From an uncultured delta proteobacterium (GTDB lineage Bacteria > Desulfobacterota > RBG-13-43-22): a stretch of DNA of 64,000 bases. Below, in pieces: positions 4,368-41,375 of the stretch. Made by a program: the position numbers and the translations under genes. The stretch is from NCBI GenBank assembly GCA_963802945.1, contig CAWDKY010000053.1, positions 1 through 64,000 of the forward strand, read 5' to 3'. The first letter of the stretch is position 1, and each line of letters begins with the position of its first letter. The notes below the pieces were generated by a model. That model did not search any database and was not told the DNA's origin. It was given only the letters and a program-made list of their open reading frames with translations.

Positions 4368-4634
4368 CTTGGCCGTGCTAAGCGGGGAGCTGGCGGTGCC
4401 CTGTACCCGAAATCCGCTCATGCGGGGCAGAATCTTCTTTTGAGGATTGGCCGACAGCAAAGCACCCTTTTCTAAGGTCAGTATTGGACAGTACGCAACA
4501 AACGGTTACGAACCCCGTCAGGTCCGGAAGGAAGCAGCGGTAAATAATGCGGTTTGTGTCGTATCTCTTTCTAATACCCGTCTTTAGACAAAGGTCTTTG
4601 GTGGCGTTGATTCGAGAAAGGATGCACGGCCAAG
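4368..4634 (+). ncRNA. ffs: signal recognition particle RNA, large (Alu-domain) bacterial type
   Basis: S-domain motif GAACCCCGTCAGGTCCGGAAGGAAGCAGCGGTAA at ~4510-4543. 5' GCCGTGCTAAGCGGGGAG..GCGGTGCCCTGTACC..AATCCGCT resembles Bacillus scRNA Alu domain. Terminal helix CTTGGCCGTGC (4368) pairs with GCACGGCCAAG (4624-4634). Confidence 0.95.
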
Positions 4635-34766: not shown

Positions 34767-34826
34767 GGGGATTCATTTCTCCTTTTTCTACATAACTCTG
34801 AGGTTATTGTAAATTTCACAACTCCC

Positions 34827-35090
34827 GTCACCCCGGCGAAACCCGGGGTCTAGGATGCATCGAAAAACTGGATTCCGGCTTTCGAGACTGTGTCGTAATA
34901 GCGGACAGCGCCATCAAAGCCGTCATGCCGGCGAAAGCCGGCATCCAGACGTCGTCCCGGCGAAAGCCGGGAACCAGACCCATATCCCCTGGATTCCCCC
35001 GGATCGAGTCCGGGGCAGGCTCCTCGTCGCGCTTCGCTTGCACGGAATGACAAAAATATAATTGCGACACAGTCCCTTAGCCGGAATGAC
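34827..35090. repeat. nested REP/TIR-MITE (MITE 34884-35076)
   Basis: CTGGATTCCGGCTTTC[GAGACTGTGTCGTAAT...ATTGCGACACAGTCCC]TTAGCCGGAATGAC; near-identical to 18203-18457. Confidence 0.88.
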
Positions 35091-35127
35091 GTCTCGGGAC
35101 TTTTGCAAAAGACAACTCTGACACGTT

Positions 35128-36742: not shown

Positions 36743-36806
36743 GGCTAACTCCAGAGCTAACCCGTCGACCGTTTACAGGCAGACCTGGTTGAGCGATTGG
36801 TTAGAT
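36743..36806 (-). mobile_element. integron attC site
   Basis: Minus strand ATCTAAC-CAATC-GCT(C)AACC...GGTTAGC-TCTGGA-GTTAGCC: RYYYAAC R'' box, L boxes with extrahelical base, GTT R' box; 64 bp. Confidence 0.88.
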
Positions 36807-37110
36807 TTTGTGCCTTATGAATCTTTGCTTTTTTAACCAGCCGTAACTCAAGACGGCAGCCGAGGACCTGTGCATATTTTTGCAGTGTGGCGAGCGAAGG
36901 TAGGTGTTTCCCACTGCCGGATTCCAATCGCGCAATTGCCGATTGAGTTGTGCCGATGCGCTCGGCAATCTGAGTCTGAGTCAGACTGGCAGCAGATCGA
37001 GCTTCTAAAAACTGATCAAGGAAGTTGAATTCTTCATCAAGCCGGTCGTATTCAGCCTTTACGTCGGCTCGTGCGAGGGCGCGGGCCTTAAGTTCTTTAT
37101 GATTTAGCAT
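36757..37110 (-). CDS. XRE-family HTH antitoxin
   Basis: LTQTQIAERIGTTQSAIARLESG..PSLATLQKYA; C-terminus runs into the attC. Confidence 0.9.
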   Translation of the reverse strand: MLNHKELKARALARADVKAEYDRLDEEFNFLDQFLEARSAASLTQTQIAERIGTTQSAIARLESGSGKHLPSLATLQKYAQVLGCRLELRLVKKAKIHKAQNLTNRSTRSACKRSTG

Positions 37111-37429
37111 TTTTGATCTCCTTCATTCTCCTTCGAGCTATGGCCAGTTCTTTGGACATGGTCTTTTCGGATTTTTTTATGAACTGGTGGAGGATTACAA
37201 TCCTTCTTCCAATAATAGTGCCGTACAATACTCTCGCAATTCCCTCCGAGGCTTTGAGTCGCAATTCAAATAACCCATCACCCATGGCGCGAGTGTGAGG
37301 CATACCCAAGTCTGGGCCGTATATCTCCATCCGATCCGAGTATCTAAGGTAGCGGGCAAGAAGACCCTTGGGTAAAGCAAGAATTTTAAGCTGAACTGAC
37401 TCGCTGTAATAGGTGATCGTCCAATTCAT
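37097..37429 (-). CDS. RelE/ParE-superfamily (Gp49/HigB-like) toxin
   Basis: GPDLGMPHTRAMGDGLFELR...RVLY...ILHQFIKKSEKT..ELAIARRR; toxin-first arrangement. Confidence 0.9.
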   Translation of the reverse strand: MNWTITYYSESVQLKILALPKGLLARYLRYSDRMEIYGPDLGMPHTRAMGDGLFELRLKASEGIARVLYGTIIGRRIVILHQFIKKSEKTMSKELAIARRRMKEIKNAKS

Positions 37430-37494: not shown

Positions 37495-37682
37495 TATCCA
37501 AATGGTGGTCTCGGTAGGGAGTACGCCAGACCTGATTTGGAATGAAATATCAATTGGCTCGCGGCATTGATGTTCTGCTTAAAAGTTTCTTTTGGGGGGT
37601 AGAATGGTCGCTTTAAGACCCTTTTTACCCACCACTTTATATAATTCATTAAGAATTCAATTTGTTAATTTAGTCCGACCCC
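37495..37682 (-). mobile_element. left end and 5' remnant of a Y1 (IS200/RAYT-like) transposase element
   Basis: GGGGTCGGAC terminus, then ATG at 37567 reading MPRAN*YFIPNQVWR; homologous to 38022-38140 and 39658-39821. Confidence 0.6.
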
Positions 37683-37945
37683 TATCCAGAGATACTTTCT
37701 ACCGGCTTTTGACCGATTTCTACGACTTCAATCGTTCCTAGATCTTTCCAGTGCTCAAGCCACTTATTAAATAGTGATGGGTCGTTTGTTTCCATTAACT
37801 GAAAGCACCGAGCACCGTCTTTCTCGAGCCAACTGTTTAAGTAGTGGAGTCCTTCCGGCAACATTCTGCCTTTCTTTTGGAACCGCTCGTAAATTTTATC
37901 TTTGCATCCCGGTTTGAACGTCTCGATGACCATGTACTGCTTCAT
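37682..37945 (-). CDS. DUF3303-like small protein (cassette)
   Basis: MKQYMVIETF..IYERFQKKGRMLPEGLHYLNSW..RCFQLMET..W...WKDL. Start at 37945; the longer ORF runs through repeat DNA. Confidence 0.8.
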   Translation of the reverse strand: MKQYMVIETFKPGCKDKIYERFQKKGRMLPEGLHYLNSWLEKDGARCFQLMETNDPSLFNKWLEHWKDLGTIEVVEIGQKPVESISG

Positions 37946-37963
37946 TTTCCTGTTCTCCCATGG

Positions 37964-38140
37964 CGCTAATGCGTCGTTGAACCTTGGCACGATCTGCGGT
38001 GCCGAAGGCACATGTGTATTTGAGGTCGGACCAAACCAGCCCCTGAAATATCGATTGGCCACCGCCATCTGTGTTTTGCTTAGAACCTTCTTTTGGAGGA
38101 TAAAATGATAATTCATTCCTTTGGCCTGGTTCGATCCCCC
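37964..38140 (-). mobile_element. MITE (38022-38140) fused to the right half of an attC-like site (37964-38021)
   Basis: Imperfect TIRs GGGGATCGAACCAGGCC / GGTTTGGTCCGACCTC, then AAATACACATGTGCCTTCGGCAC..CGTGCCAAGGTTCAACGACGCATTAGCG. Confidence 0.65.
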
Positions 38141-38234
38141 ATTTTCTATTTAAAGAAAATTGCTTTTTATCACATATTATATTAATCTTAAAAAGAATTA
38201 TTTGCAAATTTAAACCTAATCAGAGAGGGGACTA

Positions 38235-39215
38235 ATGAAAAAGATTATTGCACTGTCATGTGGAAGCCCAAGCGGAAACTGCGAAACCTTTATCAGGGCA
38301 GCTGCCGTGGGAGCAGAGGAGTTTGGAATCGAGACCGAGATTATTCGTGCCATGGCGATGAAAGTATTGCCCTTTCCCGGAAGACCCAAGGAAGACGATG
38401 TTAATTGGATCCTCGAAAAAACGGTTGTAGAAGACTGCTCTTTGATCGTCGCTGTTCCCACTTATTATGTCAAGGCCACCGGGATACTTTACAGCATTAG
38501 TGAGAGGATGCTTGGCCTTTGCGTACGGTCTCCGGAAGTCCTGAAAAAAACTAGGGTGGGCGCGGTTATCGGTGTCGGCGGTTCGGGATATGACTCCTGG
38601 GCCAGTCTGACCAATATCTCGACACAGATCTTTGTTCAGCATACCCGCAAAATAGTTGACCAGATACAAATTAATTTCTGCGGATTGAGGGAATGGAATC
38701 TGTGGATGCAACAGGGGGGTCCGCTGACAAGCCATACCCATTTAAACAGAATCATAGACACAGACTACAAGGATGCCCGGGATTTGTGGGGTAAACAGGT
38801 GAGCGCAGCGGAATTTTATAGAATGGCCATTGAGCGAGCCAAAGAATTAGGACGGAATGTTGCCCGGGCAATGGATAAACCGATAGAGGAAGTGGAGTAT
38901 TTAGGTGAAGAAGCGGCGGTGTCCTGTCCCCTTTGCCATAGCAACGTACTTCTGGTCCCTGAGGCCTTGCCCTATGTGGGTTGTCCGATATGCTGGATAC
39001 GAGGGGTTATTACCGTGGATAACGGCAAGATGAAGGTGGAGTGGAATATGAAGGACGTCGAACTCCCCAGATTTTCTTATGAGGGAATGTTACATCATAT
39101 GGAATGGCTGCGCCAAGATGGTGAAAGGCGGCAACAGGATCAGAAAGAAATGGATGAACTGAAAAACAGCGTCCTACCCCACGGTAAACTCATCGGTCCA
39201 GAAAAGGATATTTAG
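38235..39215 (+). CDS. flavodoxin-like (FMN reductase family) protein with C-terminal zinc-ribbon-like motif
   Basis: IIALSCGSPSGNCE, AVPTY, GVGGS; CPLCH...CPIC. Confidence 0.75.
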   Translation: MKKIIALSCGSPSGNCETFIRAAAVGAEEFGIETEIIRAMAMKVLPFPGRPKEDDVNWILEKTVVEDCSLIVAVPTYYVKATGILYSISERMLGLCVRSPEVLKKTRVGAVIGVGGSGYDSWASLTNISTQIFVQHTRKIVDQIQINFCGLREWNLWMQQGGPLTSHTHLNRIIDTDYKDARDLWGKQVSAAEFYRMAIERAKELGRNVARAMDKPIEEVEYLGEEAAVSCPLCHSNVLLVPEALPYVGCPICWIRGVITVDNGKMKVEWNMKDVELPRFSYEGMLHHMEWLRQDGERRQQDQKEMDELKNSVLPHGKLIGPEKDI

Positions 39216-39349
39216 CCTGTGCAGTTTTCTTTGAAAATAATTCCACAAGCAAGATATCTGGGAATTCAAAACTCCCCTATGTCCTCACGTCCCCATTGGG
39301 TCCGACCTCCTCGACTGTTAATTCTTTCTGTACCACCTAACCCATATTC

Positions 39350-39562
39350 TCATTTGACTTTGACACGAATTTTATTTTTTCCAAATTCTACGACATCCCC
39401 TGAAAAGATCTTTTTTCGTTTCCTGGTTTCAACCTTTCCATTTACTATGACTTGACTTTCAGAAATCACATATTTCGCTTCACCACCGCTAGCGACCATA
39501 TTTCCGAACTTCAAGATTTTATAGAGCTCAATTGGTTCTTCTGATATTTCAATTTCTCTCAT
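39350..39562 (-). CDS. S4-domain RNA-binding protein (YaaA/YbcJ-like)
   Basis: IELYKILK..SGGEAKYVI...VNGKVETRKRKKIFSGDVVEF. Confidence 0.9.
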   Translation of the reverse strand: MREIEISEEPIELYKILKFGNMVASGGEAKYVISESQVIVNGKVETRKRKKIFSGDVVEFGKNKIRVKVK

Positions 39563-39596
39563 TACATAACACTCAGTCTTAATGTCATTTGAATAC

Positions 39597-39821
39597 GCAG
39601 AATACTACGTTGACCCGTGGCACGATGCTTGCGGTGTCGAAGGCATATGTGTATTTCGAGGTCGGAGCAAACCAGCCTCTGGAATATCGATTGACTCGCG
39701 GCATCGGTGTTCTGCTTAAAAGCTTCTTTTCGGGGGTAGAATGGTCACATTAAGGCACTTCCCCCCTATCATTTTTTATATCATGCATTGAGGATTCAAT
39801 TCCTGGCCTGATCCGACCCCC
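39597..39821 (-). mobile_element. MITE (39658-39821) fused to the right half of an attC-like site (39597-39657)
   Basis: Imperfect TIRs GGGGTCGGATCAGGCC / GGTTTGCTCCGACCTC, internal ATGCCGCGAGTCAATCGATATT, then AAATACACATATGCCTTCGACAC..CGTGCCACGGGTCAACG. Confidence 0.65.
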
Positions 39822-40008: not shown

Positions 40009-40902
40009 TTAATTGTTTTTGTTATGCAACTGGTCCGCAATCTTTTCCCGTTCTATAAAATGTAGTGCCTCTAGAATACCCACGAAAGAATCACCAATAT
40101 GATTACCCTCGAATTCAAGATATTCCCAGTCTCCAAGCAAACCCTTCTCTATTTTAGTCCCAGATTCCACTAGCAAAACCAGCGCATATCCTTTTGCAAG
40201 AGAAAAGGCTAATTCATCTCTAGTCCATATAGATTCTCCATCTGCCGTTATTAGGTAGATTAGGAAGTCCAAAGGCTGCTCCAAACGAGTTATGACCTTT
40301 TGATCTACACGACGTGGTTCATAACCAGCTCCCGTAATGACAGTTACACCCAACAGTTCAAGAAATCTCGATAGTTCGAGAGCTAAAGCTTTTGACCGAG
40401 AGTTAAAACGATACGACAGGAAGCAAGAAAGTTGTTTTTTATTTTCTACCAGTTTCTTTTCCAGTGTATGAAGCCGTTCCTCAATTGCCAAGATTGCGCT
40501 ATCCTTATTTTCAGCAAGTTCAGTGCGTTCCAGTTGAAGACATTCCTCAATTGTTTTGAATATTATTTCAAACTTCTCCGAACTCGATAAGTTCAGGCCT
40601 ACTTGCAGTACACCACGAACTGGCTGAAAAACAATAATATTTGAACGCCCATATTCCTCACCGGGGTCGGCAAAATGGAAGTTCAGGCGCTCTGGATGTT
40701 TTTCAATTTCACAAATGCTCTTAAGCGCTACGACAGTCAAAACCTTAGACTCCTCAATGTTATCATCAATTCGATATTCCCCGCCAATCGAAAACCTATC
40801 GGAAGCCAAACTTAGTTGCGAGATAATCATCTCAAAACAGTTAGCGATTTGATTTGGCTGAAACCTGCGTTGTTTGTAGTATCGGTATGCTGTGAAGCTC
40901 AT
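40009..40902 (-). CDS. protein with C-terminal TIR-like domain
   Basis: CFLSYRF...LSRFLELLGVTV...DFLIYLIT...SIWTRDELAFSLAKG..LVLLVE..GLLGDWEYLEF, after a short coiled coil; GGAGG RBS; AT-rich. Confidence 0.75.
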   Translation of the reverse strand: MSFTAYRYYKQRRFQPNQIANCFEMIISQLSLASDRFSIGGEYRIDDNIEESKVLTVVALKSICEIEKHPERLNFHFADPGEEYGRSNIIVFQPVRGVLQVGLNLSSSEKFEIIFKTIEECLQLERTELAENKDSAILAIEERLHTLEKKLVENKKQLSCFLSYRFNSRSKALALELSRFLELLGVTVITGAGYEPRRVDQKVITRLEQPLDFLIYLITADGESIWTRDELAFSLAKGYALVLLVESGTKIEKGLLGDWEYLEFEGNHIGDSFVGILEALHFIEREKIADQLHNKNN

Positions 40903-40944: not shown

Positions 40945-41012
40945 CCATGTGGCGTTAACCAGTGGCACGAAGCTTGAGGTGCTGAAGGCATATGCAAGCG
41001 AGTGACATCGGT
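40945..41012 (-). mobile_element. degenerate attC-like site upstream of the TIR gene
   Basis: Minus strand GTCACTCGCTTGCATATGCCTTCAGCACCTCAAGCTTCGTGCCACTGGTTAACGCC; same family as the half sites at 37964 and 39597; R' GTT is missing. Confidence 0.5.
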
Positions 41013-41276
41013 ATCCCAAGGCACGACAAACACTTCGAATTTCAGATAACCTATTATAATTGATAAATATTATTTTGACAAATTAATTTCTAACCTTTAA
41101 GTTTTCATTTTGTTGAATTTTAAAACCTCCTAAGAGCGCTGTTGATTTGGGTTTGAATCTTGAATAATACTCGAAAGTACGCTACTCTCCAAATTACTTA
41201 TTAAGAAGATTGCTTTCACCACAGAGACACAGAGGGCGCAGAGAAGAACATCAGAAAGTTGAGAAACCCCTGCTTT

Positions 41277-41375
41277 GTCATTCCGGACTTGATCCGGAAT
41301 CCAGTTATTTCAAAATGGTCTGGATACCGGCGTTCGCCGGTATGACGATTATTAGACTTTTTACGAGACCATCAA
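41277..41375. repeat. REP-like paired hairpins with outer MITE end
   Basis: GTCATTCCGGACTTGATCCGGAATCCAG...CTGGATACCGGCGTTCGCCGGTATGAC...GACTTTTTACGAGACCATCAA. Confidence 0.8.

Follow-up and report, generated by a model that had tools for sequence, protein, structure and literature searches.

The window analysed here, a stretch of 64,000 nucleotides (nt) from an uncultured delta proteobacterium (contig CAWDKY010000053.1 of assembly GCA_963802945.1), carries on its minus strand, at 36.7-41.1 kb, what is on sequence grounds a decayed chromosomal integron that has lost its integrase gene. In this array, relics of a Y1-transposase element, which we call R1, are joined to the 3' part of a repeat without an open reading frame (ORF), which we call R2 and which has the build of an integron attC site. 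At a probability of roughly 0.55, we explain these junctions as a scar that a transposon relic left in a decayed integron and that would have been propagated by descent and by turnover of the array. An earlier note on this DNA had seen in them a possible mobile landing pad for cassettes, supplying a promoter and a crossover point; the hybrid scar is most likely wreckage and no working landing pad.

The three R1 copies A, B and C have diverged, lie in one orientation and start with GGGGTCGGA-like ends, and everything that the earlier note had read from their letters holds, including the frame of copy A and the deletions at GATATT. By blastn, copies A and C share 77.8% identity over 153 nt (E 8e-27), B and C 82.4% over 136 nt (E 3e-31), and A and B 76.6% over 64 nt (E 4e-6). 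Copy A (37682-37495, minus strand, with its feature row extending to 37457) consists of the left end and leader followed by ~37 N-terminal codons of a Y1 gene, and has no right end. Its frame, MPRAN*YFIPNQVWRTPYRDHH..., which reads MPRAN*YFIPNQVWR..., starts at 37567 and meets a stop at codon 6 (tblastn); across the window's copies, just 8-37 N-terminal Y1 codons are left. Copies B (38022..38140, left end degraded) and C (39658..39821, with inverted repeats at ~39821-39805 on the left and at 39677-39660 on the right) both lie on the minus strand. In both, the deletion begins directly behind GATATT, and the closing sequence, GGCTGGTTTG(G/C)TCCGACC, is an inverted version of the R1 left end GGGGTCGGAxCAGGCC. 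A fourth relic, D, probably follows the S4 gene at ~39308-39255 of the same strand (left end GAGGTCGGACCC...TTGAATTCC); it is a tentative reading made by eye and compared with the sister genome G005 only, and nhmmer gave no match there.

Beyond their closing ends, copies B and C run via (G)AAATACA into a common tail of 47-49 nt, (G)AAATACACAT(G/A)TGCCTTCG(G/A)CACCGCA..CGTGCCA.GG.TCAACG, which corresponds to the 3' portion of the repeat copy at 41022-40947, and then into two different genes, as had been claimed. Behind copy C (39601..39657, minus strand), the filler GAAATACA at 39657-39650 precedes an R2 3' arm at 39649-39601 and a gene with an S4_2 domain (39350..39562, minus strand, 70 amino acids, 88 bits in a Pfam-type family match). 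Behind copy B (37968..38021, minus strand), the filler AAATACA precedes an R2 3' arm at 38014-37968 and a DUF3303 gene (37682..37945, minus strand, 87 amino acids, 82 bits), whose stop codon overlaps the left end of copy A. The shared tail had been taken for half of an integron-type site, which stands; its crossover-type boundary lies not at GTTAACG/GTTCAACG, as had been proposed, but at the ATT 10 nt further (37970-37968 and 39603-39601).

The parent of R1 is found among the relatives of the window's organism (hereafter, G000 is the window's own genome of 4.37 Mb, the other G numbers are relatives, C marks a contig and L an extracted stretch). A near-full element of ~0.95 kb, E1, lies in the sister genome G012 (C264), and its ends and leader match R1. 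It is bounded by terminal inverted repeats of 17-18 bp (GGGGTCGGACCAGGCC; GGGTCGGACCAGACCAA / TTGGCCTGGTCCGACCC), its left end in that genome being GGGTCGGACCAGACCAA and its right end TTGGCCTGGTCCGACCCC. The E1 protein (234 amino acids, N-terminus MPRANRYFVPNKVWHITHRCHKRE) passes the Pfam model Y1_Tnp (PF01797, IS200-like) at 39.9 bits versus a cut-off of 23, and it carries NHIHLLV, which we take to be the HUH motif and, together with VYMDLNMVRAG, to make up the catalytic motifs including the tyrosine. With the NCBIfam model REP_Tyr_transpos (NF047646) it reaches 67.6 bits, below the cut-off of 80. The protein belongs to a very large family (7989 of 8000 scored candidates at E <= 1e-10; typical length 263 amino acids), whose members are named 'RayT' or 'putative transposase' in their sources. 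Elements of the IS200/IS605 type use a hairpin-end mechanism. The architecture of that type, with subterminal hairpins and no terminal inverted repeats, is not what we see in E1 or in a second Y1 element, E2, whose inverted repeats measure 15 bp.

A tblastn-type search of G000 found no intact gene of the E1 subfamily, and nhmmer found 27 R1 matches there, 24 of them outside the locus described here; only copies B and C adjoin R2. The deletion point GATATTYCAGRGGCTGG is common to all six internally deleted copies known from three genomes (B and C, G5a and G5b of G005, L061:361 and L113), in keeping with a miniature inverted-repeat transposable element (MITE), which retains the ends of an autonomous element without its coding region. 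We therefore agree with the earlier note on the nature of the element, and the B/C form of R1 can be identified as a MITE-like, internally deleted, non-coding derivative of the Y1/RayT-type HUH element E1, because a near-full parent with the same ends and a Y1 gene exists and because one deletion point is shared. Elsewhere in G000 (C30:271519-279962), six co-oriented relics of the R1 left end (GGGGTCGGACC ... TAAGCAGA), each cut just 5' of the Y1 start codon, sit among ordinary same-strand genes, and two of the six then carry an E2-type left end (GGTCAGGTCTAT). To the left of two E1-type left ends (L106, G012:C264, 1375-1405; L105, G007:C174, 6128-6160) there is a tandem duplication of flank plus the first four element bases (TACTCAAATGAGGGT twice and CTGCGTGACGGGGT twice, respectively), a possible footprint of the insertion mechanism.

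The other partner in the junction, R2, is a repeat of ~170 bp that occurs in G000 in 12 copies over 8 contigs (nhmmer). A same-strand ORF follows 19-59 nt 3' of R2 in 11 of the 12, and the twelfth is interrupted by another Y1 element. Of the genomes searched, all 20 of the same family had a match to long R2, as against none of 20 from other families of the phylum, and in the relatives R2 forms co-oriented arrays with a spacing of 0.8-1.8 kb between small, diverse and unrelated genes. Its opening TTGGCG adjoins the crossover G of a preceding site, either a canonical attC or an attI-like one; examples of the preceding attC sites are GCCCAAC...GTTGGCG and GGCTAAC...GTTGTCG, and the alternative predecessor is an AT-rich stretch that is identical at 20 of 21 positions to sequence on the attI side of a true integron. 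At the other end, conservation stops at ...GGGTCAACGCCGCATT|RRRY, that is at ATT|RRRY, in 39 distinct copies. The end hairpin has the form CGCCAAT-GCGGCGTTGcCCC ... GGGtCAACGCCGC-ATT|RRRY, and the first six bases of R2 complement its own R'' (5') box, CGCCAA(T), which is what a circularised cassette requires. The terminal stem of 16 bp is formed by positions paired in 14-17 of 17 long copies and includes a single C.T mismatch that is conserved, being unpaired in 14 of the 17; pairing of the stem amounts to 77.6% as against 30-43% with a slid partner, and the four outermost pairs, to which the next cassette contributes its bases, are paired in just 2-7 of 17 copies. Intact long R2 thus presents the imperfect palindrome, the paired outer boxes and the conservation ending at the crossover that are looked for in an attC site. 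An Rfam scan of two R2-bearing loci gave no match at E <= 1.

We conclude, from its start after an attC- or attI-like G, its self-complementary box, its ATT|RRRY end and its paired stem, that R2 is a putative integron-type cassette, family-wide, ORF-less and non-canonical in having AAT/ATT boxes and no central spacer. An inner GTTG...CAAC, in which GTTAACG would be R' with the triplets in the wrong order, had been entertained as an argument against an attC-type R2 and was dropped once AAT...ATT had been recognised as the outer boxes and TTGGCG as the start. Long R2 (for instance L016:132-308, minus strand) also contains two similar direct segments, GTTGGCGCCGCCTGCGGCGTCGCCAAT and GTCGGCTCCGCCGCAGGCGGCACCAAC, and the 'medium' copies, which are without the 5' arm, look like deletions between the two. 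At several G000 loci, medium R2 is preceded by a conserved promoter-like stretch, TTGACN-17-TATTGA, and by attI-like sequence. In one relative (L057, G017:C12), a gene at 189-1010, just 5' of the first R2 of an array, has S-T-F-K and by eye resembles a class D beta-lactamase.

The array around the junctions appears to be what is left of an integron, because a remnant of the integron platform stands at its head and the genome holds no IntI over the cut-off, relics only. This remnant (41029..41095, minus strand) corresponds to the start and promoter region of intI and shows, by blastn, 84-91% identity over 43-62 nt to five IntI loci of relatives (L044, L052, L105, L045, L043); in L105 the matched place spans the intI start codon. 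Its position and orientation are those expected for the head of an array, and of all promoter-like sites in the region the best one (TTGTCA-17-TATAAT, 41081-41053; 11/12 in the promoter scan) lies within it. Next to it lies a decayed 'medium' R2 (40947..41022, minus strand; nhmmer E 1.3e-19), which keeps the 3' two-thirds of this ORF-less cassette of attC type and is joined to attI-like sequence. No complete integron, with intI, attI and promoter beside the array, is present at the locus; all that we find is the remnant of 43-62 nt. The best IntI score in G000 is 79.6 bits against a cut-off of 265, and short intI relics occur on contigs C30 and C41. Among the 21 genomes of the family, 6 have an IntI over the cut-off. 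One of them, G007, carries on C174 a real integron (IntI 354 bits) with canonical attC sites and one attC site with AAT/ATT boxes, and its array contains two R1-type relics and one RayT-like gene. The latter, of 328 amino acids (L105, 8215-9430), lies between two attC sites in the manner of a cassette, within this true integron, and has 16-bp inverted repeats of its own, GGGACGTTGTTCATTT / AAATGAACAACGTCCC.

At least with regard to recombination, the chimeras B and C are probably dead scars, given that the 5' arm is lost and that the fold does not exceed that of shuffles. An attC site needs both arms in a foldable arrangement, and we found no R2 5' (R''/L'') arm upstream of R1 in B, in C or in the G005 copies; the DNA fold of chimera site C is no better than that of shuffled sequence (z -0.88). 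The proposal that the chimera acts as a crossover point is thus not supported, and neither is the proposal that it supplies a promoter: the promoter scan made no call within copies B or C and one 9/12 call in A, and the calls in the region (11 versus 8.5 +/- 3.1 for shuffles) are not in excess. By eye, the R1 copies have TTGAAT-17-(A/G)AAAAT in common, which is too weak by the score of the scan.

The distribution of the junction is narrow. It was found in G000, at two loci of G005 and on one further metagenome contig, L113. An exact-pattern scan of species-representative genomes and metagenomes, with the window's own genome left out, returned among the former only a record equivalent to G005, and among the latter only a 100% copy of the G005 record and L113. 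In G005 the junction stands 5' of a 226-amino-acid ORF, and a shortened form stands 5' of a 191-amino-acid ORF; the S4 cassette of that genome sits behind a different short site, unlike that of the window. L113 keeps only the right part of R1 and the inner hairpin, with a RayT-like gene just upstream. The tail is present in five of the six MITE copies with GATATTYCAGRGGCTGG, L061:361 being the copy without it, and the chimeric copies are 81.5-92% identical to each other. The junction is thus more than the local duplication that the earlier note had named as an alternative, since it recurs before other genes in a sister genome and on a metagenome contig. We regard the chimeras as an old, lineage-restricted scar family, neither a recent duplication nor a widespread unit. 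Their occurrence in three close genomes only, with one deletion point, points to one ancestral event that may then have spread by array turnover.

It is possible to outline how such a scar would have come about. An ancestral R1 copy would have ended up inside one R2 cassette, and either this event or a later deletion would have stripped the R''/L'' arm, leaving the inner hairpin and the L'/R' arm in place. The chimera, unable to fold as attC, would have survived as a scar. Within one lineage it may then have gained different 3' genes by cassette turnover beyond the surviving ATT boundary, and homologous exchange among the many R1 and R2 copies in the arrays would also have moved it.

Several observations weigh against this account. 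Firstly, with regard to R2, the canonical AAC (R'') and GTT (R') triplets are missing, the boxes being AAT/ATT in 16 of 17 long copies with GTT in one, and there is no unpaired central spacer between the R and L boxes. Moreover, no R2 was found at E <= 10 in the flanks of 11 IntI-family loci (6 over the cut-off) from 10 relatives, a weak negative given that the 12 stretches searched had flanks of 1.2-17 kb, many of them at contig ends; no repeat-punctuated array was seen in 17 kb by the IntI of G009 either. Secondly, the chimeric copies differ by 8-18%, as against 7% for the S4_2 cassette, which is 93% identical between the window and G005. The copies are accordingly older than the split of the species, which excludes a simple recent duplication. 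The same chimera also stands behind at least three different upstream cassettes, so that homologous exchange or repeated insertion must be assumed and IntI exchange at R' alone is insufficient. Thirdly, Y1 elements occur at R2 more often than would be expected. The element E2, which encodes a 284-amino-acid RayT-like protein with a C-terminal helix-turn-helix between its inverted repeats (GGGTCAGGTCTATTT), has three copies in G000 (C16, ~245.7-246.7 kb; C33, ~35.4-36.3 kb; C30, ~107.8-108.9 kb; L005, L006 and L009), two of which (C16 and C30) lie within R2, at two different R2 positions, in a genome where R2 takes up ~1.5 kb of 4.37 Mb. In an informal tally made by hand from the listed E1-type and R2 matches in the family, 8 of 45 E1-type matches lie <= 3 kb from R2 where ~1% would be expected; two more E1-type matches are located in the IntI-linked array of G007.

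The excess of Y1 elements in and beside R2 fits targeting and tolerance equally, and targeting of hairpins is unproven. If it were real, the Y1/RayT elements (E1/R1, E2 and their relatives) would favour single-stranded R2- or attC-type hairpins, in the manner of IS1111-attC elements and group IIC-attC introns, and the chimeras would be repeated site-directed insertions. We hold this to be unlikely, though less so than the other alternatives. The E2 copies that interrupt R2 and the hand tally speak for it, as do the E1 of G018 (L090), which lies between an R2 5' arm (left end 18 nt off) and another attC site (right end abutting), the RayT-like genes just after a 3'-truncated R2 in G017 and just 5' of the chimera in L113, and the two R1-type relics and the RayT-like gene in the IntI-linked array of G007. 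However, insertion at one position, one of two options in the earlier note, does not hold as a general rule, since the R2 positions vary (after CGCCAATGCGGCG, before CGAT, before CATG and after CGTGCCATGG) and R2 sequence was lost in every one of them, unlike in clean site-specific insertion. No R2 5' arm lies to the left of B, C or the G005 copies, most R1 matches of G000 lie away from R2, the six on C30 among ordinary genes, and the common deletion point with the common filler GAAATACA favours shared descent of the chimeras. Cassette arrays are, besides, general sinks for mobile DNA.

A scar left by one ancestral event also has to be set against a chimera that is itself mobile. A Y1 enzyme acting in trans would move R1 together with the inner hairpin of R2 (GTGCC-TTCG-GGCAC), which would serve as a surrogate right end, and would so bring R1 and the tail in front of new genes with no need of an integrase. 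R1 plus TCGAAATACRCATNTGCCTT does form a conserved core in five of the six MITE copies, in three genomes; the sequence after this core varies (B, C and G5a continue with the remainder of R2, L113 with unrelated DNA and G5b with an ORF start), and the chimeric copies are old and diverged. But G000 is without an intact E1 gene, L061:361 has the same deletion point and no tail, all copies are confined to a single homologous region within the arrays of close relatives, a flanking target signature was not found, and the inverted-repeat ends of the element do not match the hairpin-end mechanism of IS200/IS605. We consider such mobility improbable. The wider proposition, that RayT-type Y1 elements of this Thermodesulfobacteriota family prefer attC-type hairpins, as a third and enzymatically distinct attC-seeking class, and that a Y1 enzyme mobilises the R1-hairpin chimera as a unit, seems to us only a shade less doubtful.

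Equally improbable is that R2 is no integron site at all but a repeat like the repetitive extragenic palindromes (REP/REPIN) serviced by RayT-type proteins, with the arrays due to another process: the E2 protein does pass the REP-associated tyrosine transposase model NF047646 (84.9 bits versus 80) and sits in R2 twice, R2 is without AAC/GTT triplets, and IntI is missing from G000 as R2 is from the sampled IntI loci, but R2 starts exactly at the G|TTGGCG of attC/attI-like sites with six bases that complement its own R'' box, its conservation ends at ATT|RRRY, an intI-start remnant lies in the window in the right place and orientation, an attC site with AAT/ATT boxes exists in the true integron of a relative, and E1 and E2 have inverted repeats that bear no relation to R2.

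Several known systems come close to what is described here. In Vibrio, the boundary site of the cassettes (the VCR repeats) is homogeneous within the bacterial family. Cury et al. (2016) are said to have used CALIN for clusters of attC sites without an integrase. The term is in use in that sense in PMC7923331. The window resembles a CALIN, or a decayed sedentary chromosomal integron, in its co-oriented small accessory genes, which include toxin-antitoxin pairs, in its family-homogeneous boundary repeat, in the integrase being present in some relatives only, and in the platform remnant at the array head. It differs in that an ORF-less cassette, with AAT/ATT R boxes and a continuous 16-bp stem without a spacer, forms the boundary repeat, and in that, of the three sites in the window, two are half-sites with a transposon relic fused to them.

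Mobile elements that target attC sites are known, namely the IS1111-attC elements and the group IIC-attC introns. Like these, the window's element lies inside an attC site in one orientation; they insert cleanly and at a fixed position, with attC halves on both sides, whereas the element described here has a Y1 HUH enzyme, varied positions and a lost 5' half of the site. A similar pairing has been published, in which a Y1-transposase element lies by an integrase-less cassette array and the authors speculate on an interplay of elements that rely on DNA in single-stranded form. The element of that study is intact (tnpA and tnpB), has hairpin ends and sits beside the site, and neither a fusion nor a repeated chimera was reported. 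As in the REPtron/RayT (TnpA_REP) systems of PMC8266576, E1 has a RayT-type Y1 HUH gene flanked by short inverted repeats, with many decayed non-coding derivatives in intergenic DNA that are co-oriented with their neighbours. E1 differs from these systems in its NCBIfam score (67.6 versus 80), in that G000 has no single resident gene copy, and in that R1 consists of relics of the upstream region and start codon of the gene and not of REP hairpin doublets. PMC8266576 goes no further than to compare REP recognition with attC recognition. The earlier note knew of no description of a link between Y1 elements and attC sites; full-text searches, whose coverage does not extend to subscription journals, showed no account of an attC site with a Y1/RayT MITE fused into it, although other elements that target attC are, as said, known.

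From the head of the array, the order is platform remnant, decayed R2, a cassette-like ORF of 297 amino acids without a Pfam family (40009..40902, minus strand), R1-C with its R2 arm, the S4 gene and relic D; then follow an inverted FMN_red-like gene (38235..39215, plus strand, 326 amino acids), R1-B with its R2 arm, the DUF3303 gene, R1-A, and a HigB-like (Gp49) toxin gene with a helix-turn-helix (HigA-like) antitoxin gene as the next cassette-like unit (36757..37429, minus strand). More cassette-like genes lie past this pair, including barnase/barstar and an NTF2-like gene. The block 38019-39596 is kept at 90-96% identity on contigs from other metagenomes. Sequencing runs contain related material only at small shares (<= 0.13 of sampled words); in the contigs from these runs the FMN_red and S4 block is present in relatives and R2 lies within one RNA-library contig, and none of them gave transcription start sites. 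GC-rich palindromic clusters of the GTCATxCCGGCGAAAGCCGG type ('PAFAGMT' in the ORF lists), at 34823-35110 and 41265-41335, make up a distinct family of REP-like repeats, within the array and next to it. Elsewhere in the window, the bacterial large signal recognition particle RNA (RF01854, 147 bits) lies at 4373-4629 on the plus strand, the sole Rfam match at gathering score in the whole window.

Recombination at integron sites and the action of Y1 transposases both involve folded single-stranded DNA. A functional link between the two, if true, would mean that two single-stranded DNA systems feed on each other, and it could explain how arrays change after the loss of the integrase; if both targeting and movement as a unit were true, genomes without IntI would gain a second, integrase-independent route to shuffle cassette junctions. 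As it stands, the case documents the decay of an integron in an uncultured anaerobe lineage of peat and sediment, a clear excess of RayT-type elements in such arrays by our informal tally, and an unusual and abundant ORF-less cassette with AAT/ATT boxes, which standard attC models may miss.

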